A stretch of 64,000 bases of DNA from a candidate division Zixibacteria bacterium CG_4_9_14_3_um_filter_46_8 (GTDB lineage: Bacteria > Zixibacteria > MSB-5A5 > UM-FILTER-46-8), in NCBI GenBank assembly GCA_002791595.1, contig PFXJ01000092.1, forward strand, positions 17,847 through 81,846, read 5' to 3'. Below are positions 2,182-22,444 of the stretch, in pieces (the stretch's first letter is position 1; each line of letters opens with the position of its first letter). Both the position numbers and the translations under genes were made by a program. The notes beneath the pieces were generated by a model, which saw nothing but the letters and a program-made list of their open reading frames with translations, made no database searches and had not been told where the DNA came from.

Positions 2182-4350
2182 TTGCGGAGACTCTTCGCAT
2201 TATCGGTTCTTATCTCGGTTTTATCAATGAGCGTGCAGAGCAGGGGGCAGGTATTTGAATATGTCGGTTCTACCCTTTGGTCGGGGGTTAAAGATGTGCA
2301 AGTTGTAGATAATTATGCTTATTGCGCCGTGCAAAATGGATTAATGATTCTTGATATTTTAGATCCGGAGAAACCGGAAATCATTGGCCGATATTATTAT
2401 TCTGAAGGTGGGCGCACAGCGATTGAGGTCGTCGGCCAATTTGCTTATTTGACGGCTGGCACCGCTGGTTTGGTCATATTGGACGTCTCCGACCCATCGA
2501 ATCCTCTATATATCGGCAGCTACGATACTCCTGATTGCGCGGTCGATGTAGCCATTTCAATCAATGGTGCCGAAAGGTATGCTTATGTCGCCGATATTGG
2601 ATCCCTGCAGGTCATTAACGTTACGGAACCTGCAAGTCCGGCATATATCGGCTTCTACTCGGCGTGGGCCTGCGATGTAGAAAAAGTGTTTATGGATGGC
2701 AATTATGCCTATTTGGCGCTTTTGTACCGCATTGATTTGACTGGTAGATTAGAAATAGTTGATATGTCAAATCCATCAAACCCTAATTACATTGGGGGGT
2801 ATGGGAACTATAATATCGATATCCAGGGCTTGTTCATCAGGGATGGATATGCCTATATTGCCAATTCATGGTATGAATACCCCGGGAGTCCTTTTCATGG
2901 GCTTCTCGTCCTCGATGTTTCCAACCCTGCTAATCCCACATTCATTACCAGAGCGGCCACTGGTCATCCTGCAACCAGCATCACATTGAGCGGCAATTAT
3001 GCTTATTTGACGGAGCTTCTCACTCTTATAATTTATGATATAACAAATCCCGCTAATCCGAATCCGGTCGGCTCTTGTTCGGGTGCAAGAAATTATTCCG
3101 TCGGCTCATCGGTTTCCGATGATGTATTCTATGGCGCTGATGGCGGTTTGAACCTTTTCGATGTGTCAAATCCTTCATCGCCCGCGCTTATTGGCAATGT
3201 GGCCCGCGGCGAAACTCATGGCGTGGCGATTCGAGCTGAGCTCGCCTGTAGAGTTGGTTCTGCGCCGGGCTTTCAAATATTCGATATCTCCGACCCTATT
3301 CTTCCGAAGCCAAGGGGTTCCTATGAGACGCAGGATATTGCTGGAAGTGTTTTTCTGCAGGGGATCTATGCGTATGTGCCGGACGGATCAGAGGGAGTGA
3401 AAATCATCAATATCTCCAACGCTTCAGGACCTGTTTTGGTGGGAGTTTATGATAATCCGAGTGGAGGGGCGCGCCAGGTTTTTGCCTACGAGGATGTTCT
3501 CTATGTAGGCATAGACGAAAGCGGCATAGATATTGTTGATGTTTCCGATCCGGCCAATCCTGTATTGGTCGGCCAGAGTCCAATTCCGAGCTACGCCATC
3601 CGTGGAATTGATGTAAGCGATGGTCATCTGTATGCGTTGGCTTCCTATCCTTTGAATCAGATGTACATATTCGACATATCTGATCCATTGCACCCGATAA
3701 CCAAAGGGACTTATGATATTGAATACCCCAATGGGATCTTTGTAGCAGGCAATATCGCTTACGTTGTGAGTGATGCCGGGCTTGGAATTTTGGATGTTAG
3801 CGATCCATCTAATATATCGCTGATTGGCGGCTATGCCACTCCGGATTGGGCCAAAAAAGTGTATGTCGTCGGCAATACAGCGCTGGTTAGCGTAAATCTA
3901 TCAGGCCTTCTGGCATTGGATGTTTCGGATCCCGCAAATGTCACGATGCTACAAAGCATCGACACACCGGGCAGAGCTTATGACATTGCGGTGTCGAATG
4001 GTTATATTTTCCTCGCTGATGTATATTCATTAATAATATTCCGAATGCTTCAATCGGAGATACCCGATGATGGTGAATATCTGCCGCCCGATTTCGCCCT
4101 TTCTCCTAATTACCCCAATCCATTCAACGTCACGACAACAATTCAGTACGATCTCCCATATCAAACCGATGTAAAAATTGACTTCTTTGATCTTCTTGGC
4201 CGCAAAATTAAGACCCTCAACGAGGGGCTCAAGCCGGCTGGCAAATATTCTATTTTATGGAACGCAGATGGATATTCTTCTGGTATTTATTTTTATAAAA
4301 TGACCGCCGGTGAATATTCCCAATCCCGGAGATGCACTCTGATTAAGTGA
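2182..4350 (+). CDS. Secreted LVIVD-repeat beta-propeller protein with a T9SS C-terminal sorting domain
   Basis: N-terminal signal peptide after a TTG start (GGAG RBS upstream). There are at least 12 repeats of the type YAY(v)A...GL.ILDVSDPSNP..IG, i.e. LVIVD repeats. The C-terminus reads NYPNPFNVTTTIQYDL...GIYFYKM, a T9SS CTD. Confidence 0.75.
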   Translation: MRRLFALSVLISVLSMSVQSRGQVFEYVGSTLWSGVKDVQVVDNYAYCAVQNGLMILDILDPEKPEIIGRYYYSEGGRTAIEVVGQFAYLTAGTAGLVILDVSDPSNPLYIGSYDTPDCAVDVAISINGAERYAYVADIGSLQVINVTEPASPAYIGFYSAWACDVEKVFMDGNYAYLALLYRIDLTGRLEIVDMSNPSNPNYIGGYGNYNIDIQGLFIRDGYAYIANSWYEYPGSPFHGLLVLDVSNPANPTFITRAATGHPATSITLSGNYAYLTELLTLIIYDITNPANPNPVGSCSGARNYSVGSSVSDDVFYGADGGLNLFDVSNPSSPALIGNVARGETHGVAIRAELACRVGSAPGFQIFDISDPILPKPRGSYETQDIAGSVFLQGIYAYVPDGSEGVKIINISNASGPVLVGVYDNPSGGARQVFAYEDVLYVGIDESGIDIVDVSDPANPVLVGQSPIPSYAIRGIDVSDGHLYALASYPLNQMYIFDISDPLHPITKGTYDIEYPNGIFVAGNIAYVVSDAGLGILDVSDPSNISLIGGYATPDWAKKVYVVGNTALVSVNLSGLLALDVSDPANVTMLQSIDTPGRAYDIAVSNGYIFLADVYSLIIFRMLQSEIPDDGEYLPPDFALSPNYPNPFNVTTTIQYDLPYQTDVKIDFFDLLGRKIKTLNEGLKPAGKYSILWNADGYSSGIYFYKMTAGEYSQSRRCTLIK

Positions 4351-4768
4351 TTGAAAATACTCGAAAGTTCATTGAAACACTAATGGCGAATCCTCAATAG
4401 AATGCCCATTGCTTTCCAACAAGACTAATTTTAGGCATAGACTTTGAATTACCCCGAACAATATTTCATAATTCACAGTATAATATCCATGCAAAACCAT
4501 GGAATCAATCAAGTCGGTTAAAAAAATACTATTGGGCATTTATTATCCAAATAAACACTTGCCAAAACAAATCATCAGTATTATAGTTAGCGAAATTTGA
4601 AATTCCCTGATGAAGAAATTTTAATAATGACGCTGAATAATCCCTCTGATAAGATGGGGATAATTCTTTGCTTAAGAGAAATATCTCAGACAGGTTATCA
4701 GTAGCGTGAAAAGTCATTATGGAAGTCGGGAAGAAATTGCCAAAGTTATTTTCTGAATAGGATCATTT

Positions 4769-5413
4769 TTGCTTCCTAAAAAAATCTCGAGTGGCGAACA
4801 TGTACCGTCTGAGCCTTACCTGGCTTATTATGATCATGAAGAATGTTATGTTAATTTGTCGGGGCGATACGACTATCTGGAAACGTCGTATTATGCTTCT
4901 CAGGATTTGGAATGCACGGGCAGAAACGTCCACCCCACTTGCAAGGAAATCCTCGATGCCTATGTGACTCCCCTTTTTTTGGAGAAGGCGAAATTATCCG
5001 GTTTGGCGGTGCCCGAGTATTATATCACTAATGGTTTCTTTGAGCCTCCGGTGATAATTGATACTATGAACCCGTTTATGGTGCGCAGCAGTATAGTCCT
5101 TAAAGCTGGTCACAAGAATAGGGTGGCGAAATCGATGACACGGAATTATACGTACGCGATCTGCTGTCAGGAGCTTCCCCTTACGGCACAAGTAAAATAT
5201 TTCCGCTTGGTGCTGGGATGGAGCAACTCACGCCGATTTAGAGAAATAGCGGATTCGGTTTGGAAAGTGTTTCACATCCCGCTGGCGCGGATTAGAGTGA
5301 TAATTTTAGAGAGTGGAGAGATGCTTTTGAGCAATGTTGAACATCTGCCTTTCGAGCGACTTAATGCCAAAGAACTTGCATACCTTCAGGAAAAAGTAAC
5401 ATGGGAAGAATAG
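4769..5413 (+). CDS. Hypothetical protein co-transcribed with the RimK-like ligase; possible RimK-like ATP-grasp N-terminal (RLAN)-type partner or substrate
   Basis: 214-aa ORF with a TTG start. Its stop overlaps the start of the ATP-grasp gene by 13 nt. I recognise no catalytic motif. The RLAN assignment rests only on gene context and is an inference. Confidence 0.45.
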   Translation: MLPKKISSGEHVPSEPYLAYYDHEECYVNLSGRYDYLETSYYASQDLECTGRNVHPTCKEILDAYVTPLFLEKAKLSGLAVPEYYITNGFFEPPVIIDTMNPFMVRSSIVLKAGHKNRVAKSMTRNYTYAICCQELPLTAQVKYFRLVLGWSNSRRFREIADSVWKVFHIPLARIRVIILESGEMLLSNVEHLPFERLNAKELAYLQEKVTWEE

Positions 5414-6291
5414 GAATTTTTATTGAGCGATATACCATAACGCGTAGCGAAGAGATGGGTGCGCTGATGCGTTACAGCCAAGTGGCCAGACGGCTGGGTC
5501 ATCAAGTCGATTATATATTCAGGCCCGATATGTATAAAATACCCCAATATGATGCGATCTACATCAGGGCCCATACTGACCCACTGAATTCCTCATACAT
5601 TGCCGCTCGGACAGCGCAATTGAATGGGGTTCGGGTCATCGATGACCCGGATTCGATTTATATCTGCTGCGATAAAGTTAATATGTATCAGCATCTCAAG
5701 AATGCCGGTGTGAGTATGCCCGAGACCCTATTTCTTGAGCAACGTGATTTGAATCTGGAACGGGGAGCCGAGCTTTTCCACACCTTAAGCAATCCATTAG
5801 TCCTCAAAGCTCCGAACAGCAGTTTCTCTATGTATGTCGAAAGAGTTCAAACACCCAAAGAATACGTCAGAGTCGGGAATCGTTTTCTTCGCCGGGCGGA
5901 TCGGATTGTGGCTCAGCGTTTCATACGGTCGGAATTTGACTTGCGGGTAGGCGTGCTGGCCGGGGAACCGTTGTATGTCTGCCAGTATCTAATTCCCAAG
6001 AAACGGTGGAAAATCCTGACCCACATTGAGAATGGCAGGATTATTTGTGGACCCGTGAAGGGAGTTGAACTGGATCAAGCTGACCCTCGTTTGCTGGATA
6101 CCGCGCTTCAAGCCGCAAAAGCTATAGGGAATGGATTCTATGGCATTGACTTGAAGCAGGTCGATGATGGATTCGTGGTGATCGAAGTCAATGATAATCC
6201 GACTATCAATGCCGGTGAGGAAGATCAGAAAGCGCCCCATCTCTACGAGCGGATAACACGTTATCTTATGGGTGAATGGGGCCTGTCATGA
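5401..6291 (+). CDS. RimK-like ATP-grasp ligase (alpha-L-glutamate ligase / glutathione synthetase-like)
   Basis: ATP-grasp fold signatures are present: PLVLKAPNSSFSMYV, GEPLYVCQY, and a C-terminal GIDLKQVDDGFVVIEVNDNPTIN that matches the RimK/GshB Mg-ATP site. The length of 296 aa is typical of RimK. Confidence 0.8.
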   Translation: MGRIGIFIERYTITRSEEMGALMRYSQVARRLGHQVDYIFRPDMYKIPQYDAIYIRAHTDPLNSSYIAARTAQLNGVRVIDDPDSIYICCDKVNMYQHLKNAGVSMPETLFLEQRDLNLERGAELFHTLSNPLVLKAPNSSFSMYVERVQTPKEYVRVGNRFLRRADRIVAQRFIRSEFDLRVGVLAGEPLYVCQYLIPKKRWKILTHIENGRIICGPVKGVELDQADPRLLDTALQAAKAIGNGFYGIDLKQVDDGFVVIEVNDNPTINAGEEDQKAPHLYERITRYLMGEWGLS

Positions 6292-6740
6292 TCCGGAAGA
6301 CCAATATCCGTATCGGGACTATAAATGATCTCGATGCCCTGGTCGATCTGGAATTGCGGGGATTCACCGCAGATCATTTTAGCCGTTCCCAATTTGCCTA
6401 TCTTCTCATCAGAGCCAATGCCACCACTTTTATTATGGAAAGTCAGGGGGGGATTATAGGCATGGCGACTATGGTGTGGCGAAGCAACTCAAACACCGGC
6501 CGACTATATAATATCGTCATCGATCCTTTACTGCGGGGGCATGGGCTGGGCACTGCCCTCTTGGAAGCGTGTCAGAATGAAGTGGCAAGGAGGAATTGCC
6601 GGAAGATCTCGCTGGAGGTTCGGGCTGATAATAAGTCCGCGATAGCATTTTACGAAATGCATGGATACCAAGTCCAGGAATCGTTACCGGGGTATTATTC
6701 CGATGGCGCATCGGGTTTGCGAATGACCAGGTCAATCTGA
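6288..6740 (+). CDS. GNAT family N-acetyltransferase (RimI-like)
   Basis: GNAT motifs A and B: RGHGLGTALLEACQNEVARRNCRKISLEVRADNKSAIAFYEMHGYQ. The start codon overlaps the stop of the ATP-grasp gene as ATGA, indicating translational coupling. Confidence 0.8.
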   Translation: MIRKTNIRIGTINDLDALVDLELRGFTADHFSRSQFAYLLIRANATTFIMESQGGIIGMATMVWRSNSNTGRLYNIVIDPLLRGHGLGTALLEACQNEVARRNCRKISLEVRADNKSAIAFYEMHGYQVQESLPGYYSDGASGLRMTRSI

Positions 6741-6940
6741 AATGCTTATCATCCAATAAAATGCCGCGTCTCTCTGGAATGCCCGATCAAATTCCAAGAC
6801 ATTAACTCTTGACATTTTTGGAGCAGTTTAATAACATCAAAGTCATAGTGGATAGCCTTAGAGATGCTATTCCAACCCGACCGTCTTGAAATGAAACGTT
6901 TGATTATCATCGGTAATTCGCTTAACGAAGGGAAATTTCT

Positions 6941-7846
6941 GTGAATATGCATTTATGGCTTGAGCAGGCTCTAAAATGGCTCATTGCGGTTGGGCCAAAG
7001 GTTGTGGTGACCGTGATCCTCACCCTAATTGCCTTGAGGGCCTCAAGGTCGCTCTCAGATCGTTTTCTGTCCGCTTTCAAAAAAGCTAAGCCGGAGATGG
7101 AAATGCAGAAGCGCGCGGATACGCTTAGTTCGCTGATGCGTTATGTGGCCACCGTAATAATCATAGTGGTCTCCTCGATAATGATTCTGGACGAATTTGG
7201 AATTGATATCGGCCCCATACTGGCGGCCGCAGGCATAGTTGGTTTGGCTGTCGGTTTCGGGGCTCAGCACTTGGTTCAGGATGTTATCAGCGGATTCTTT
7301 ATTCTGATAGAAGATCAAATCCGTGTGGGTGATATTGTCCAGATCGCCGGCAAAAGCGGCCTGGTAGAAAGAGTCAATTTGAGGATGACCACTTTGCGCG
7401 ATTTATCCGGCAATGTTCATTTTGTGCGCAATGGCCAGATAGATGTGGTTACCAATATGACCAAGGAATATTCCTACTATGTGTTCGATATCAGCATTAG
7501 CTATCGCGAAGATATAGAGGAAGTAACCGCTATTATCAAGGAAATCGATGAGCAGATGCGAAATGATCCCCAATTCAAGGATTTTATTCTGGAGCCTATT
7601 GATGTTTTGGGTTTGGACAAGTTCGCCGACTCAGCCATCATAATTCGAGCTCGAGTTAAAACCAAACCGATACGACAATGGAAAGTGGCCAGAGAATTCA
7701 ATCGACGGTTGAAAAAGGAGTTTGATGAAAGAAAAATCGAAATGCCCTATCCACACCTTATGTTATATATGGGTCAGGATAAGAAGGGGGATTCGGCGCC
7801 TTTAAACGTTTCTCTAACAGGAAAATCGGAACATCTTTCCGAATAG
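6941..7846 (+). CDS. mscS: Small-conductance mechanosensitive channel, MscS family
   Basis: Three N-terminal TM helices followed by the MscS signature GFGAQHLVQDVISGFFILIEDQIRVGDIV and a C-terminal beta domain. The start could be the GTG at 6941 or the ATG at 6947. Confidence 0.85.
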   Translation: MNMHLWLEQALKWLIAVGPKVVVTVILTLIALRASRSLSDRFLSAFKKAKPEMEMQKRADTLSSLMRYVATVIIIVVSSIMILDEFGIDIGPILAAAGIVGLAVGFGAQHLVQDVISGFFILIEDQIRVGDIVQIAGKSGLVERVNLRMTTLRDLSGNVHFVRNGQIDVVTNMTKEYSYYVFDISISYREDIEEVTAIIKEIDEQMRNDPQFKDFILEPIDVLGLDKFADSAIIIRARVKTKPIRQWKVAREFNRRLKKEFDERKIEMPYPHLMLYMGQDKKGDSAPLNVSLTGKSEHLSE

Positions 7847-7968: not shown

Positions 7969-8562
7969 ATGCCTATAACACATCCCGATCTTCCATACGC
8001 GCGTAATGCGTTGGAACCCTATATGAGCGCCAAAACCTTTGAGTTTCATCATGGCAAGCATCTCAAAGCTTATGTTGACAACACAAACAAGTTGATTGCC
8101 GGCACCCAGCTTGAAAATGCCGACCTTGAAACGATAGTCAAAGAGACTGCCAAGGATTCCTCCAAGGCAGGCATATTCAACAATGCGGCCCAGGTTTGGA
8201 ATCACATATTCTTCTTCAAATGTATGAAACCCAATGGCGGCGGGGTTCCCTCCGGCAAAATCGCCGAGATGATAAATGCGGCATTTGGAAGCCATCAGAA
8301 GTTTGTCGATGAATTCAAAAACGCTGGTGTAACGCAATTCGGTAGCGGTTGGGCCTGGTTGGTTCTGGATGGCCGACAGCTTAAGGTATTTAAGACTCCC
8401 AATGCTGAAAATCCGCTGGCTCATGGCTTGAAACCACTGTTGGGTGTCGATGTCTGGGAACACTCCTACTATCTCGATTATCAAAACCGTCGTCCTGATT
8501 ATCTCGCCGCCTTCGTGGATAAGCTGATTAATTGGGATTTTGTCAATTCCTTGTTGACCTAA
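7969..8562 (+). CDS. Fe/Mn superoxide dismutase
   Basis: The N-terminus PDLPYARNALEPYMSAKTFEFHHGKHLKAYVDN and the downstream block GVDVWEHSYYLDYQNRRPDYL are canonical Fe/Mn-SOD metal-ligand regions. A GGAGG RBS lies upstream. Confidence 0.9.
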   Translation: MPITHPDLPYARNALEPYMSAKTFEFHHGKHLKAYVDNTNKLIAGTQLENADLETIVKETAKDSSKAGIFNNAAQVWNHIFFFKCMKPNGGGVPSGKIAEMINAAFGSHQKFVDEFKNAGVTQFGSGWAWLVLDGRQLKVFKTPNAENPLAHGLKPLLGVDVWEHSYYLDYQNRRPDYLAAFVDKLINWDFVNSLLT

Positions 8563-9752: not shown

Positions 9753-10769
9753 ATGAAGGTTCTTCTTATGTTCCGCAGGAATACGGCTGTATCGGCAGTC
9801 ATCATTATCTCCTTTTTGTTGATAACCGATTTTCCCGAACAGGGAATTGGGTCGGTCGATTCCGAAGCAAAAAAGCGTCATTTTACTTTTTCCTATGAAT
9901 TGAGTATCAGTGATATTCCCCGCGAGGCAAACGACCTGAAAATATGGATTCCGTTTCCGCTGACTGACAGAGATCAAAACATAGAGAATTACCGAATATC
10001 CTCTCAACTTCCGTACTATACATACATCGACCCGGAATATGGGAATAATATCCTTGGTGTCAAATCCACGGGCAAAATCCCTGAGGAAGTGAAGATTAAA
10101 CTCGATTTTGAAGTCACCCGTCGTGAAGCAGGTCCTTTGACTGAAGAGAGAACTGACAACCATGGCGCCGATTTGCGGGAGTTGGGACGGTTCTTGGCAG
10201 CAGACAGATTGGTTCCGATCGATGGAAAAATTGCGGAGGAGGCCAAGCAGGTGATCAGTGATGATATGTCCGGAATTGAAAAAGCACAGGCGGTCTATAA
10301 TCATCTAACACAGGTCATGAGATACGATAAATCCGGGACGGAATGGGGACATGGCGATGCCTTATACGCTTGTGATACTCGAAAAGGCAATTGTACTGAT
10401 ATTCATTCCCTCTTTATAGGGATGATGAGGGCTTGCGGCATTCCCGCCAGGTTTGTAATAGGATTCCCTGTCCCGGAAGAGAGGACTGCGGGCGAAATCC
10501 CTGGGTATCATTGTTGGGCGGAGTTTCACCTGGAGGATAAGGGATGGATCCCGGTGGATATTTCCGAGGCAATCAAACATCCCGAGAAGAAGGAATATTA
10601 TTTCGGCCGGCTTGACCCGAATCGGATCTCTTTCACTGTCGGCCGCGATATACCGCTGGAGGCCGATGCACAATACGGGAGGTTGAATTTTTTTATCTAT
10701 CCGTACATTCTTATCAATGGGAGGCCATTCGATAATGCCGAATATAGTTTTAGTTTCGCTCAAAAATGA
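9753..10769 (+). CDS. Transglutaminase-like cysteine peptidase domain protein, secreted
   Basis: Signal peptide present. The transglutaminase core catalytic triad context is YACDTRKGNCTDIHSLFIGMMRACGIPARFV ... GYHCWAEF ... GWIPVDIS (Cys-His-Asp). Confidence 0.75.
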   Translation: MKVLLMFRRNTAVSAVIIISFLLITDFPEQGIGSVDSEAKKRHFTFSYELSISDIPREANDLKIWIPFPLTDRDQNIENYRISSQLPYYTYIDPEYGNNILGVKSTGKIPEEVKIKLDFEVTRREAGPLTEERTDNHGADLRELGRFLAADRLVPIDGKIAEEAKQVISDDMSGIEKAQAVYNHLTQVMRYDKSGTEWGHGDALYACDTRKGNCTDIHSLFIGMMRACGIPARFVIGFPVPEERTAGEIPGYHCWAEFHLEDKGWIPVDISEAIKHPEKKEYYFGRLDPNRISFTVGRDIPLEADAQYGRLNFFIYPYILINGRPFDNAEYSFSFAQK

Positions 10770-14135: not shown

Positions 14136-15818
14136 TTATTTTATCAAGGCCATTCTGCCTATTAATATCCTCTCTTGGCAGGCAAGCCGATAATAATAAA
14201 TGCCGGAAGGCAGAGCGTTCCCGTTCCAGCCAATGGTATTATCCCCCCTCGTCAGGAAATGGCTGGAAGAGCTGATTAATTTCCCTTGAAGATTATAGAC
14301 ATTTAGAATAGCGGTGGCAGATAGGGGGGAATGAAGAATGATATTAGTCTGGGCATTAAACGGGTTGGGGTAATTACCGATAATAGCGAATTCCCCCGGC
14401 AAACTTTCGGTTAAGTCATTGACACCGGTCAGAGTATCGACAAAGGCGGAATAAAGGAATGGCTGGTTATTGGCCGACGATAGCAACGTTACGATCAAAA
14501 TCACACTATCAACTGGACTGCCGAAGTCAATCGTGAGCGATCCCAAACCATTTTGGTCACATATTACCGAATCATAACTCGCGATCCCGCTTTCACCAAA
14601 GACAATGGCATCCATCGCCCAATTCAGTTCCGGCTCCCCTTTCATTTCAAAGCGAATATTATCCGTATATACCTCGAGGTTTTTGAAGGCGATATAGTTG
14701 CTCCCGATGCCGGAAGGTGCTTTGATGGTAGTTTGGTCATATACAGGTAGAGTCGAATGAGTCCTCATTATGGAAATCGGCGGATAATTGGAGCCCTCTT
14801 CGAAATGTAAACTGTCGTCCTGCAGGCCAGTGAAGTAATTCCAGACCATAAAGCGGCGATATTCGGACCACAGCGAACTTTCATTTAAGTAAAAATAGGC
14901 ATCGAGAACTTCATCGACCGCGTTTATGACCGTCCCTTCCCAGATATTGCGCATGGCATCTATGCCGAAATTTTGATAAATATACTGGGGCCAGACAAAC
15001 ATCCCGTACTCATGGGCGCCGTTTTCGGTGCTGTGGGCATAATGAGGGTAATTATAAAAATCATAGAGGTAATTGTAGTTGTCATTCACAGCATCATAGA
15101 GGATATCTTCCGACCAGGTGGAACTGTTTTCCATAAACCAGGCATCAGCCCAGACATTGTAGGAAAATTGTACGGCATGATAAAACTCATGAACCACGGT
15201 AACCTTTAGGGGCTCGGTTCTATCGGGATACCCGAAACCGCTATAACTGGGATCTACATAAATATAGCTGGTATATGAATAGGGTCGGTCGGGATATTGG
15301 CTTGACGGGCTTTCGGGCCAGGCCACCCCATAAGTTCCGAAATAGTGATGCATATATGCATCATATAAGCCATCGCCGCCTCCATTTACGCCATCAGATG
15401 GCGGCATCGTATACCCCAACGTATCAAATAGGGCCCATGATTCTTCGAAAAACTCCCCACAGCGATTGACAAAATCGGGATGACCATCGGCAGGAAGAGT
15501 ATCGGTGGTTGCCTGATAGACCGCATCGCCGCCGGTGGTATCATAATGAATCCTGAAATGCCCTTCCGGTGTGTCATAATATTTTTGCATATTGACACGA
15601 GAGAGCAACGTGCCGAAATCGAATGAATAATTATCTCCTCGATTGATCTCCGGAATAGACTGCATCAGAGGAATAAGGCCGCATTTGGTTTGGGAATTGT
15701 TGTTAATTGAACAATGTGCGATTTGAAAGGGAAGAAGAGCAACTAACAAAACAAAAATACAGAGTTTCGATACCATTATTCGATAAAACATGCTTTTTGC
15801 CATTTTCCGCCTCCGCAA
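14136..15818 (-). CDS. Secreted zinc metallopeptidase (HExxH gluzincin-like) with a T9SS C-terminal sorting domain
   Basis: Signal peptide present. VTVVHEFYHAVQ carries the HExxH motif, with a glutamate 20-26 aa downstream (ENSSTWSE). The C-terminus IGNYPNPFNAQTNIIL...GIYYYRL is a T9SS CTD. Confidence 0.7.
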   Translation of the reverse strand: MRRRKMAKSMFYRIMVSKLCIFVLLVALLPFQIAHCSINNNSQTKCGLIPLMQSIPEINRGDNYSFDFGTLLSRVNMQKYYDTPEGHFRIHYDTTGGDAVYQATTDTLPADGHPDFVNRCGEFFEESWALFDTLGYTMPPSDGVNGGGDGLYDAYMHHYFGTYGVAWPESPSSQYPDRPYSYTSYIYVDPSYSGFGYPDRTEPLKVTVVHEFYHAVQFSYNVWADAWFMENSSTWSEDILYDAVNDNYNYLYDFYNYPHYAHSTENGAHEYGMFVWPQYIYQNFGIDAMRNIWEGTVINAVDEVLDAYFYLNESSLWSEYRRFMVWNYFTGLQDDSLHFEEGSNYPPISIMRTHSTLPVYDQTTIKAPSGIGSNYIAFKNLEVYTDNIRFEMKGEPELNWAMDAIVFGESGIASYDSVICDQNGLGSLTIDFGSPVDSVILIVTLLSSANNQPFLYSAFVDTLTGVNDLTESLPGEFAIIGNYPNPFNAQTNIILHSPLSATAILNVYNLQGKLISSSSHFLTRGDNTIGWNGNALPSGIYYYRLACQERILIGRMALIK

Positions 15819-19711: not shown

Positions 19712-22444
19712 TCAGGGATTGCTGCCCAGCAGTTTATCAAGAAAATCCCCACTTCCAATTTCGCTTATCCGGAGCAACCTGACTTTCGAAGCCAGATTAG
19801 ATTCTATATTTGCTGGAGTATATAATTCCTGGTGGGCTTTGGAAAAATCGTCATCCGCGATGACCACATTAAGCAGGATATTCAAATTGGGGGCAATAGT
19901 CGTCAGATTTCTGAATCTATCATTGATGGCTTTGTTGAAGGTGGTTATTGATGTGGCAACTTCGATTGCGGAGAGAATGTTTTGGGAACCTGTTAGAATT
20001 ATCAAATCTATTTCTTTTACCAATCTGAAAACATTAGGGGTAAGACCAACTTCAAAACCGCTCAGCTTCAGGCTCAACTCGTTCAACATTGGGGATTTCC
20101 TTTGTTCAGTTTCTCCGATGTGAACATTGTAACCTCTGCTTTTCGCGGTCTCGGCGATGACCTTAATTATTCCATTATGATCGAGCAGAATGGGGATATC
20201 GATGTCTAAGGCTATCTGATCAGCTATCGCCTGATTTATTTGGCCGGGCGTTTTTGCCCTCGGATTCAAAATATAGAATTCCCGTTTTTGGCCTTTAGTC
20301 TTCAGTTTCTTGCAATATTTGGTCAGCACTTTATCAATTGTGCTCATTTGCGGGCGGTAGGAATTGACTAATTGAGAATATGTCATTACCAGCAATTCAT
20401 CAAGGCTTGCTTTCGTATGTTCCGAAAGATGGCTGAAAATAAGTTGCTGGGCAAGGTTTTCGGCTGGGATGGAATCAAGGAATTTTATTGCCCCTGACGG
20501 CTCAACCATATCTACCATGAACCACTTCTTTTCTTTCTTGTCAAATATAAAGTTCCCACTGGAAAGCAATAGTCGCAGATCAAACTTGGCCAGCCGAGCC
20601 AATAGCCCTTTTTCGGAGAGATATGGCAACAAGCCGGTCATCAGTGTGGTCTCATCTGCGCCGCCGTGATACCTGATTATTTGCTCACATTTTTGCAGGA
20701 GAGATTTCTCTTCATCTGTGGAGAGATGCTCTTTTATCGCCTCTAATTCGATGGTTGACTCGTAGGGCTTGAAAGAGAGAATGAAATCGCCCAACATCGA
20801 GCCGGTTCTTTTCTGGTGAATCGTTTGGGTGTAGTTCTCAATCGGCGGTTGATAAACCATCCCCCGATTCCTGCATTCCTCCAATGATGGAAGCCTGAAA
20901 CCCGCCCTTATTGCGGCGCGGTTCATCGCCATCCACACGCCGATGTCCCGGTTGTGAAAGGTCAATGCCATCCATCCATCTGGTTTGATAACCCGCCGGC
21001 ATTCCTTGAATATTTTGAACAGCATATCTTCATAAAATTTTCTATCTTTCGCTCCATCGAAGCCGGAATGCCGGGTTTCGATGGCTTCATTTTCCTTGGG
21101 CGCTCCATTCTTCAAACCGAGGAATTCCCTGATCCAGACTAGATAGAAGTCAGACAACTCCGCGTATTGGACATTTCCCCCAAATGGTGGGTCGGTGATC
21201 ACCGCGTCAATGGATGCGTCAGGCAGTTTGATCTCGTGGCTTGATTGAGTCAGAATCCAACAAGTGGCTCCGTTATGTATCTCCTCCCAGGGTTTAAGAG
21301 TCCTGGGAAACGAGCAAAAGTCCCCGATCTCCCGTTCTTGCTCGGCTTTGCCGGCTTTGAAGGCGGCAAAACGCTTCCGCATCGGGTCAATCGGAGACGC
21401 TTCCAAGTATGTATAGGGTGGCCAGTATATGTGGCCGGGCCATTCCAAAGGCCTATCGCCCCGCCATGCTTCGCTTCTAATAACCATCTTGTTGACGAAA
21501 CGAATCGAGGCGGAGAAAATATGAATCAACCCTTGTTTTATTGATTCGTCTTTTACATTTTCTCTAATCCATTTCTTTGCTAAGCCCAAGCTTATTCGCT
21601 GTCTTGGCGTGAAGTAGTCGGCAAATTTGAGAAAGCCCTTGTTATAAAGATTGTTCTCCCTAACGGAATTCATATCAGGGAAATCATCCTTCGGTATCAC
21701 CAATTTTTCTTTTTTTATTACGCTTTTTTCTGTCTTTGAAATTGAATTATAGAGCCTAATATCTCCAATTGTTGCCGGCCTAATGCGCCGTTCCTCACAG
21801 TTTTCGCAATTCACCAAAACGGAAAGCATCTTATCCGGAAGCCGTTCGCAATCGTCAGCTTTCAATCGCGCTTTGCATTTCGGATTGGTGCATTCATAAA
21901 CAGCGTTGGGATGTTTTGTCGCATTTCCCAAGACCACCGAGCTCTTGCAGTCAGGGCATTTTATCACATTCGACCATTCGAACCATTCCGCAACAGCCGA
22001 CTTACCGCACTTGGTGCATTTCGCACGAAAAAGAGTCTCAATGTTTTGTTTGCTCCAGTCGAACCATTTTTGGAACGCCTTTTCCACAGCATCGATATCT
22101 ATCGGTGAAGCTTCAACCTGGGTTATCCAGGTCGCCAAAGGATTTAAGTCTATTCCGACCACCCGTCTCCGCAACTTCAAAGCTTCAACCACTGTCACCC
22201 CGCCCCCGCAGAATGGATCCAAAATGATGTCCCCCGGATTGGAATAATGCTCGATCATTTTCGAGAAAACGTTATGTGGCCGTCTGGCATAGTACCGGTG
22301 CATCTTATAAATGGGCGTGTGAGCTTTTGCCAGCACCGGCGCTATGATAGGTCTAAGCGGTTTGCTCTTAAGACCCTCTTTTTGGACCTGCAAATCTATG
22401 GCTTCGTGGACGGTTTTGGCTTGTAAATCAAGTTCCCTATTCAT
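19712..22444 (-). CDS. Zn-ribbon-containing N6-adenine/N4-cytosine DNA methyltransferase (COG1743-like), 910 aa, with a ~400-aa C-terminal extension of unknown function
   Basis: Motif I is ILDPFCGGGVTVVEA (FxGxG), and motif IV, ITDPPFGG (DPPF), lies ~300 aa downstream. Between them are several CxxC pairs (CTKCGK...CPDCK...CTNPKCK...CENCEE). The ATG is 2 nt downstream of the murA stop (TAA-TT-ATG), with a GGCGGAG RBS inside the murA 3' end. I see no nuclease motif and no R or ATPase partner gene on either flank. Confidence 0.8.
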   Translation of the reverse strand: MNRELDLQAKTVHEAIDLQVQKEGLKSKPLRPIIAPVLAKAHTPIYKMHRYYARRPHNVFSKMIEHYSNPGDIILDPFCGGGVTVVEALKLRRRVVGIDLNPLATWITQVEASPIDIDAVEKAFQKWFDWSKQNIETLFRAKCTKCGKSAVAEWFEWSNVIKCPDCKSSVVLGNATKHPNAVYECTNPKCKARLKADDCERLPDKMLSVLVNCENCEERRIRPATIGDIRLYNSISKTEKSVIKKEKLVIPKDDFPDMNSVRENNLYNKGFLKFADYFTPRQRISLGLAKKWIRENVKDESIKQGLIHIFSASIRFVNKMVIRSEAWRGDRPLEWPGHIYWPPYTYLEASPIDPMRKRFAAFKAGKAEQEREIGDFCSFPRTLKPWEEIHNGATCWILTQSSHEIKLPDASIDAVITDPPFGGNVQYAELSDFYLVWIREFLGLKNGAPKENEAIETRHSGFDGAKDRKFYEDMLFKIFKECRRVIKPDGWMALTFHNRDIGVWMAMNRAAIRAGFRLPSLEECRNRGMVYQPPIENYTQTIHQKRTGSMLGDFILSFKPYESTIELEAIKEHLSTDEEKSLLQKCEQIIRYHGGADETTLMTGLLPYLSEKGLLARLAKFDLRLLLSSGNFIFDKKEKKWFMVDMVEPSGAIKFLDSIPAENLAQQLIFSHLSEHTKASLDELLVMTYSQLVNSYRPQMSTIDKVLTKYCKKLKTKGQKREFYILNPRAKTPGQINQAIADQIALDIDIPILLDHNGIIKVIAETAKSRGYNVHIGETEQRKSPMLNELSLKLSGFEVGLTPNVFRLVKEIDLIILTGSQNILSAIEVATSITTFNKAINDRFRNLTTIAPNLNILLNVVIADDDFSKAHQELYTPANIESNLASKVRLLRISEIGSGDFLDKLLGSNP

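Follow-up and report, generated by a model that had tools for sequence, protein, structure and literature searches.

Comparative genomic work by Iyer, Abhiman, Burroughs and Aravind in 2009 reportedly predicted a class of amidoligase systems that combine an RLAN domain, a RimK-like ATP-grasp ligase and a GNAT, often with a papain-like peptidase. Three small genes at positions 4769-6740 of the DNA analysed here, a 64-kb stretch of a candidate division Zixibacteria contig (PFXJ01000092.1; the whole stretch is called the window below), belong to this previously predicted, uncharacterised peptide-making or peptide-tagging class, in a split-gene form. An earlier note on this DNA had proposed a RimK-like/RLAN/GNAT operon, and the Pfam and NCBIfam identities as well as the gene order agree with it. 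Literature searches on RLAN, PF14401 and inactive ATP-grasp domains turned up no experiments on this class. New here are an ATP-grasp fold and a predicted dead active site for RLAN, a fixed 13-nucleotide (nt) overlap between the first two genes, a cassette that is independent of its flanking genes, a set of fusion proteins, the reading of the GNAT as a probable acetyltransferase, and a peptidase domain that the window has lost.

Parts of this arrangement recur in characterised systems. N-acetylglutaminylglutamine is made by Ngg, which unites a GNAT with an ATP-grasp enzyme and is encoded in an operon together with a peptidase (PMC8070244). In closthioamide assembly an ATP-grasp enzyme is paired with CtaG, a PF11814-like papain-fold transacylase (PMC7183216). 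Fusions of DUF3335, the domain defined by PF11814, to GNATs have been noted, uncharacterised, in a classification of papain-like peptidases (PMC10318531). The ATP-grasp enzyme CfmP of Klebsiella is TupA-like and has no bearing on this class.

The open reading frames (ORFs) of the window locus are co-directional, and the earlier note had placed them and their overlaps correctly as one translationally coupled unit:

4769-5413, plus strand: ORF1, TTG start, 214 residues; RLAN as a protein of its own, a predicted paralogue with the ATP-grasp fold but without catalytic activity
5401-6291, plus strand: ORF2, ATG start, 296 residues; predicted catalytic ATP-grasp amidoligase of the RimK/LysX clade with a pre-ATP-grasp domain
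6288-6740, plus strand: ORF3, ATG start, 150 residues (154 from the alternative start at 6276); predicted RimI/Ard1-type GNAT N-alpha-acetyltransferase without DUF3335
5401-5413, plus strand: overlap of ORF1 stop and ORF2 start, 13 nt, ATGGGAAGAATAG; pattern NTGG-N6-TAG in relatives
6288-6291, plus strand: overlap of ORF2 stop and ORF3 start, ATGA, read from the sequence and following the JGI gene call

Relatives were gathered by scanning one genome per species, which gave 80 loci, mostly from Zixibacteria; the labels of the rest include Ignavibacteria, Eisenbacteria, Gemmatimonadota, Calditrichaeota and GN15. Where ORF1 homologues have a named source, it is likewise chiefly Zixibacteria, and ORF2 is identical to a protein in NCBI from a metagenome-assembled genome of candidate division Zixibacteria. 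The order RLAN, ATP-grasp, GNAT on one strand was kept in all 80 independent loci long enough to show all three genes. The ligase adjoins RLAN in 81 of 82 loci; a GNAT is seen in 74 of these 82, the others being truncated by contig ends. The overlap of ORF1 with ORF2 measures exactly 13 nt in 78 of 81 loci, at protein identities of 47-66%, while the ORF2/ORF3 junction is tight yet variable, with an overlap in 38 of 78 loci and a gap of 0-30 nt in another 35 (73 of 78 together). Because each of the three proteins has hundreds of homologues, the gene order holds in 80 of 80 loci and the overlap is fixed in 78 of 81, the ORFs are real genes in an arrangement far beyond chance. The earlier note had suggested looking at neighbourhood conservation and had worried that ORF1 might be a fragment or lack homologues; conservation of the order and the hundreds of ORF1 homologues settle both points in favour of its operon.

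The flanks, in contrast, are not conserved: the commonest family immediately upstream occurs in 5 of 78 loci and the commonest downstream in 5 of 75, and a search across the related loci for a conserved flanking substrate, transporter or regulator gene found none. Since order and the 13-nt overlap are kept while flanks vary, RLAN, ligase and GNAT form a self-contained cassette. After the three core genes, the commonest gene clusters are antisense shadow ORFs. Such long minus-strand frames, which lie within the ligase and RLAN genes, were counted in 44 and 28 loci (e.g., L005:6510-6932, L007:4974-5459) and are best explained as a by-product of strong sense-gene conservation plus codon bias, not as genes.

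ORF2 should be an active ligase, because its catalytic residues are invariant or 97-100% conserved. Throughout the family K92, K136, Q172, D180 and R182 do not vary; D250, E262 and N264 reach 97% in the set of 78 locus sequences and are invariant in an alignment of 31. The protein thus has the ATP-binding lysines, hinge Gln/Glu and Asp/Glu/Asn ligands for Mg2+ that mark a catalytic ATP-grasp enzyme. It matches the Pfam families RimK and ATP-grasp_3, and its best NCBIfam models are rimK_fam (66 bits), LysX (51.5) and MptN (40), all under their curated cut-offs; for RimK the scores are 66 against 143.4 bits (TIGR00768) and 20.4 against 331 (NF007764), and for LysX/ArgX 51.5 against 275.6 (TIGR02144). 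By sequence the closest solved structures are ArgX (1.5e-8), Pseudomonas RimK (2e-4) and LysX, and by structure ORF2 is again nearest to LysX/ArgX and RimK.

ORF1 is recognised by the Pfam RLAN model (PF14401) over residues 28-208 with 38 bits against a gathering cut-off of 25 (E = 1.7e-9), which bears out the tentative suggestion of the earlier note that the first protein might be of the RLAN type. Its structural model has the ATP-grasp fold by two methods. Foldseek ranked Pseudomonas RimK first (E = 1.7e-7, TM 0.58), and the order of secondary-structure elements parallels that of ORF2 from the helix at residues 83-90 onward, with two deletions. A sequence search of the PDB with the RLAN profile gave nothing significant, and the relationship of RLAN to ORF2 is visible at the level of fold only. 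When the catalytic positions of ORF2 are mapped onto RLAN, D98 stands in place of the ATP-binding K136, R176 in place of the Mg2+ ligand D250, and S188 and V190 in place of E262 and N264; Q134 corresponds to Q172 and is kept. Across the RLAN family no lysine is conserved at a level of at least 90%, and no E-x-N motif occurs in any register, so that RLAN is judged catalytically dead whatever the register. ORF1 therefore combines the fold of an ATP-grasp enzyme with absence of its catalytic lysine and of its Mg2+-binding Asp and E-x-N motif, and on the strength of these models we conclude that RLAN probably arose by duplication of a RimK-like module and has since lost catalysis.

The family nonetheless retains strongly conserved residues, namely D98, the NPF at 101-103, S122, T124-R125-N126, Q134, R176 and S188. 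The invariant polar residues among them suggest that some binding function survives in the former active-site cleft. The Zixibacteria-type RLAN is longer than the canonical RLAN of fusion proteins by about 60 residues (roughly 78-140, resembling strands of the central domain). Both proteins of the Zixibacteria-type family also have a vicinal Cys-Cys pair, C132-C133 in ORF1 (ICCQE, window 5162-5167) and C89-C90 in ORF2 (ICCDK, window 5665-5670), which is 95-100% conserved, is absent from the canonical RLAN-RimK fusions, and could be a metal or redox site.

The fixed overlap constrains the end of ORF1. W212 is invariant in the NTGG-N6-TAG pattern, and this residue and the TAG stop are forced, because the same nucleotides encode, in the other frame, the start codon of ORF2 and its Gly/Ala and Ile/Leu-Gly codons. 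This bears on the possibility that RLAN is itself an acceptor or carrier, like LysW or S6, whose C terminus (WEE in the window) is extended by the ligase or whose N terminus is capped by the GNAT; the earlier note had likewise considered the first protein as a substrate. In the window ORF1 does end in Glu-Glu like E. coli S6, its N-terminal 14-17 residues are predicted to be disordered, and translational coupling would provide for its synthesis 1:1 with the ligase. The C-terminal Glu-Glu was nevertheless rejected as a conserved RimK-type acceptor. Of 82 homologues only 23 end in Glu, others having Ile, Asn, Thr, Ser or Ala in its place; the position before it varies as much, and W212 and the stop are already accounted for by the start of ORF2. 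The N-terminal tail is not conserved either, and canonical relatives have RLAN built into the N-terminal part of the ligase, where it has no free C terminus. Conservation thus largely refutes an acceptor role, which we consider highly improbable, and RLAN as a non-catalytic adaptor, which the earlier note had also allowed, seems the better reading of the sequences. A programmed -1 frameshift within the 13-nt overlap, which would yield an RLAN-ligase fusion, was also considered and rejected, as there is no conserved slippery heptamer; in two relatives (L052 and L078) a stop codon directly precedes the ORF2 start in its own frame, which likewise argues against frameshifting.

Genuine fusions do exist. 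A HMMER scan of 1.84 billion cluster representatives with a profile of the standalone RLAN gave only 131 matches, the distant ones being RLAN-RimK fusions of 475-500 residues and a single GNAT-RLAN-RimK fusion of 651 residues. ORF2 aligns over its full length with the ligase half of the RLAN-RimK fusions, one of which adjoins a divergently transcribed GNAT gene. Because the fusion proteins join them, the three activities work together physically. No peptidase gene was found near protein P0217 (L087:5001-6956). A gene for a patatin-like phospholipase lies near both of the distant-fusion loci that were inspected (L087:2135-2911, L089:6500-7669); with two cases, coincidence is possible.

ORF3 looks like a true acetyltransferase, judged from its family and motifs. 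It matches Pfam Acetyltransf_1 with 71.6 bits and falls narrowly short of the RimI equivalog (TIGR01575, 80.8 bits against a cut-off of 86.4). Its closest sequences in the PDB, Ard1 (4pv6, 3e-12), RimI (5isv, 2.5e-9) and Naa30/50/60, are all protein N-terminal acetyltransferases. It has the R-x-x-G-x-G motif that binds the pyrophosphate of acetyl-CoA, the LEVRxxN...Y block and the YYxDG substrate loop of this type of GNAT, the key residues of which (R83, G86, G88, E110, N115, Y122 and Y136-Y137) are 94-98% conserved among 75 sequences. The earlier note had raised a peptidyl-transferase here, and a GNAT acting as a second amide-bond former, in the manner of Fem peptidyl or aminoacyl transferases, has some precedent: GNAT-fold peptide ligases exist, and a peptide-bond role for GNATs linked to ATP-grasp enzymes has been raised in the comparative-genomics literature (PMC4431377, PMC10318531). 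ORF3 is, however, a single-domain GNAT of 150 residues with RimI as its best family, N-terminal acetyltransferases as its nearest structures and the acetyl-CoA and substrate-loop motifs intact. It has no match to the FemAB-type Acetyltransf_6, which occurs as a separate upstream gene in 12 loci (see below). A peptidyl-transferase is thus improbable.

The window differs from most of its relatives in what is joined to the GNAT. In 52 related loci the GNAT is fused to a C39-like papain-fold domain (DUF3335, PF11814), the catalytic Gln, Cys, His and Asp of which are 100% conserved in 50 sequences, whereas in 26 loci including the window it stands alone; no DUF3335 homologue was found in ORF3 or anywhere in the 64 kb. 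The GNAT-only forms are scattered over the tree of RLAN plus ligase, pointing to repeated loss of the domain.

These parts can be assembled into a self-contained cytoplasmic amidoligase of three translationally coupled proteins. ORF2 would be the sole amide-bond catalyst, phosphorylating a carboxylate with ATP to give an acyl-phosphate that is attacked by the amino group of an amino acid, most likely glutamate by family precedent. ORF1 would be a non-catalytic partner in fixed stoichiometry with ORF2, in the position of the second protomer of RimK and LysX oligomers, and the conserved residues of its cleft would recognise substrate or regulate the ligase. ORF3 would transfer an acetyl group from acetyl-CoA to a free alpha-amino group, either on the acceptor or on the product. 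In about two-thirds of the relatives the GNAT-fused papain-like domain might then hydrolyse or transfer this product; the window's version, having lost DUF3335, would only synthesise. The logic of the output would be that of N-acetyl-Gln-Gln made by bacterial Ngg or of N-acetyl-Asp-Glu in mammals. The identities of the three parts can be given with high confidence. As to what they do together, we infer an ORF1-ORF2 complex, its substrates and, as the most likely product, a short N-acetylated alpha-peptide, with a confidence somewhat short of even.

A hint of small-molecule chemistry comes from 12 of 82 loci (L010:872-4899; L011, L024, L045, L050, L056, L064, L065, L069, L074, L080 and L083), in which a four-gene cassette lies directly upstream on the same strand, packed so tightly with the RLAN operon as to resemble one seven-gene operon. 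It encodes an AdoMet_dc-like decarboxylase, a FemAB-like GNAT (Acetyltransf_6), an L-amino-acid ligase (ATP-grasp_4/LAL_C2) and a pyridoxal phosphate-dependent Orn/Arg decarboxylase. This cassette is, however, confined to part of the tree and absent from the window, and could reflect inherited synteny, which is one of several points that weigh against the peptide proposal. The match to Ngg is negligible, the Ngg model (TIGR03103) giving 13.3 bits with ORF2 and 23.3 bits with ORF3 against a cut-off of 569. The derivation of RLAN from the ligase module is exposed as well: the lost residues were mapped from secondary-structure order and local motif similarity, not from a computed superposition, and profile-profile alignment of ORF1 with ORF2 by hhalign found no sequence homology (probability 3.7% and 0.03% in local and global modes). 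Lastly, the nearest solved relatives of the two enzymes modify proteins and not free metabolites: ArgX, LysX and RimK on the C termini of LysW or S6, and RimI, Ard1 and Naa on protein N termini.

The protein substrates of these relatives speak for a different role, in which ORF2 adds Glu or other residues to the C terminus of a protein encoded elsewhere (S6 or another), RLAN recognises that target, ORF3 acetylates the N terminus of the target or of its partner, and the papain-like domain of the relatives trims the tag as RimB does for RimK. S6 and S18, the targets of RimK and RimI, pair as a heterodimer in the 30S subunit, which is in keeping with such a role, and the identity of ORF2 across relatives (66-78%) is as expected with a fixed macromolecular target. 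In Pseudomonas, moreover, RimK modification is under the control of RimB, a protease dedicated to the system (PMC11957791). Yet no candidate target is conserved in cis across the 80 loci; ORF2 is far under the RimK and LysX cut-offs (in rounded bits, 66 against 143, 20 against 331 and 51 against 276); neither a LysW-like carrier gene nor lysine or arginine biosynthesis genes lie nearby, in the window or in the 80 loci; and the 12 loci with the upstream cassette tie the operon to small-molecule biosynthetic enzymes. The ribosomal target in particular had been set aside in the earlier note for want of ribosomal genes nearby, and rpsF was not seen among the annotated neighbours in the window. This argument is weak: E. 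coli rimK is not adjacent to rpsF either, so S6 is not to be dismissed by context. Overall, protein tagging is the main alternative and only a little less probable than the peptide.

The N-acetyl peptide that we favour, or a protein tag, would, if new, add to the few known bacterial peptide modifications that are independent of the ribosome, and would give a function to genes common in Zixibacteria, a widespread uncultured phylum of sediment and groundwater. The window locus and its roughly 80 relatives are a clean, minimal split-subunit version of the system, with three small soluble proteins and without accessory genes; that the peptidase domain is present in some natural variants and missing in others also makes it well suited to reconstitution. 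Once RLAN is read as a degenerate copy of an ATP-grasp enzyme, what was an 'unknown alpha+beta domain' becomes a testable idea, that of a pseudoenzyme subunit conferring specificity or regulation. In a bolder version, RLAN proteins would be ATP-grasp pseudoenzymes, the first to be described, forming an obligate heteromer in which they dictate the target of the live ligase. The module would then produce either a novel solute of N-acetylated oligo-amino acids or a new reversible protein tag that ligase and GNAT write and the papain-like domain erases, and would do so in Zixibacteria and allied uncultured phyla; taken whole, this version is rather unlikely.

Expression signals around the operon were also inspected:

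4351-4768, plus strand: AT-rich intergenic region of 418 nt upstream of the operon, with a candidate promoter inside
4759-4762, plus strand: AGGA, Shine-Dalgarno-like motif for ORF1, read from the sequence, 6 nt before the TTG
5388-5391, plus strand: AGGA, Shine-Dalgarno-like motif for ORF2, read from the sequence, lying 9 nt ahead of the ATG, in the 3' end of ORF1

The candidate promoter (4559-4587, TTGCCA-17-TATAGT) comes from a consensus scan only. Because an in-frame TGA lies at 4754-4756, the TTG at 4769 is the sole start that keeps the conserved region of ORF1. Purine-rich motifs resembling GAGGAG or AAGGAG occur at the equivalent position before ORF2 in related loci. For ORF3, the start at 6288, which gives the 4-nt ATGA overlap, is the choice of the gene caller on identical JGI metagenome contigs; the alternative at 6276 would give a 16-nt overlap with ORF2. 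No Rfam RNA family or riboswitch was matched in 4300-7000. Within the AT-rich upstream region the JGI gene caller also predicts a 56-residue minus-strand ORF (4369-4539), with no Pfam hit on record.

Other genes of the window deserve brief mention. Downstream of the operon and on its strand lie genes for an MscS-type mechanosensitive channel (6941-7846) and an Fe/Mn superoxide dismutase (7969-8562); only 3 of 75 related loci have MscS as the gene downstream, so the case for a link to osmoadaptation is weak. A transglutaminase-core (papain-fold) protein encoded 3 kb downstream (9753-10769) is syntenic in near-identical JGI contigs and is not a DUF3335 homologue. Two secreted proteins (2182-4350 and 14136-15818), one with 13 LVIVD repeats, have C-terminal sorting domains of the type IX secretion system, consistent with an organism of the FCB group. 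A 910-residue minus-strand ORF (19712-22444) matches an N6/N4 DNA methylase domain over residues 49-102 only, the remainder being unannotated, and may be a fused restriction-modification or defence protein. Membership of the RLAN operon in a defence system was considered and rejected, as the PADLOC protein models gave no match to ORF1-3; the single marginal match (E = 1e-3) was to the GNAT-peptidase of one relative (L004).

By curated thresholds, then, the window system is not RimK, LysX, RimI or Ngg. With RimK, ORF2 shares its ATP-grasp clade, fold and catalytic residues while scoring below the cut-offs, and the pairing of RimK with the peptidase RimB is paralleled in the relatives of the window system. 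From LysX and ArgX it is set apart by the missing LysW and amino-acid pathway genes. ORF3 has the catalytic and substrate-loop motifs of RimI, archaeal Ard1 and eukaryotic Naa enzymes, but unlike RimI it lacks a tsaB/tsaD context, is obligately linked to an ATP-grasp ligase and, in relatives, is usually fused to the papain-like domain. Ngg, which makes an N-acetyl dipeptide, shares the pairing of GNAT with ATP-grasp and the peptidase in the operon; it differs in belonging to the NAGGN osmolyte pathway, in its AsnO partner and M42 metallo-peptidase, and in having no RLAN, and no amidotransferase was found among the window neighbours.

Glutathionylspermidine synthetase/amidase is a pair of an ATP-grasp and a papain-fold enzyme. 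It and CtaD/CtaG show, as do the window's relatives, how an amide-making ligase and a papain-fold hydrolase or transferase can be combined in one system, and CtaG is in the same Pfam family (PF11814) as the GNAT-fused domain of the relatives (PMC7183216). The window system differs in that no carrier protein or thiotemplate is seen and the papain-like domain is absent. The closest counterpart is still the class predicted in 2009: all three of its domain types are present here as an RLAN, an adjacent RimK-like ligase and a linked GNAT, which are adjacent, co-directional and coupled. The papain-like peptidase, a frequent though not universal accessory of the class, is absent from the GNAT of the window and carried by most of its relatives, and RLAN, instead of being an N-terminal domain of the ligase, is a separate gene joined to it by the fixed 13-nt overlap.

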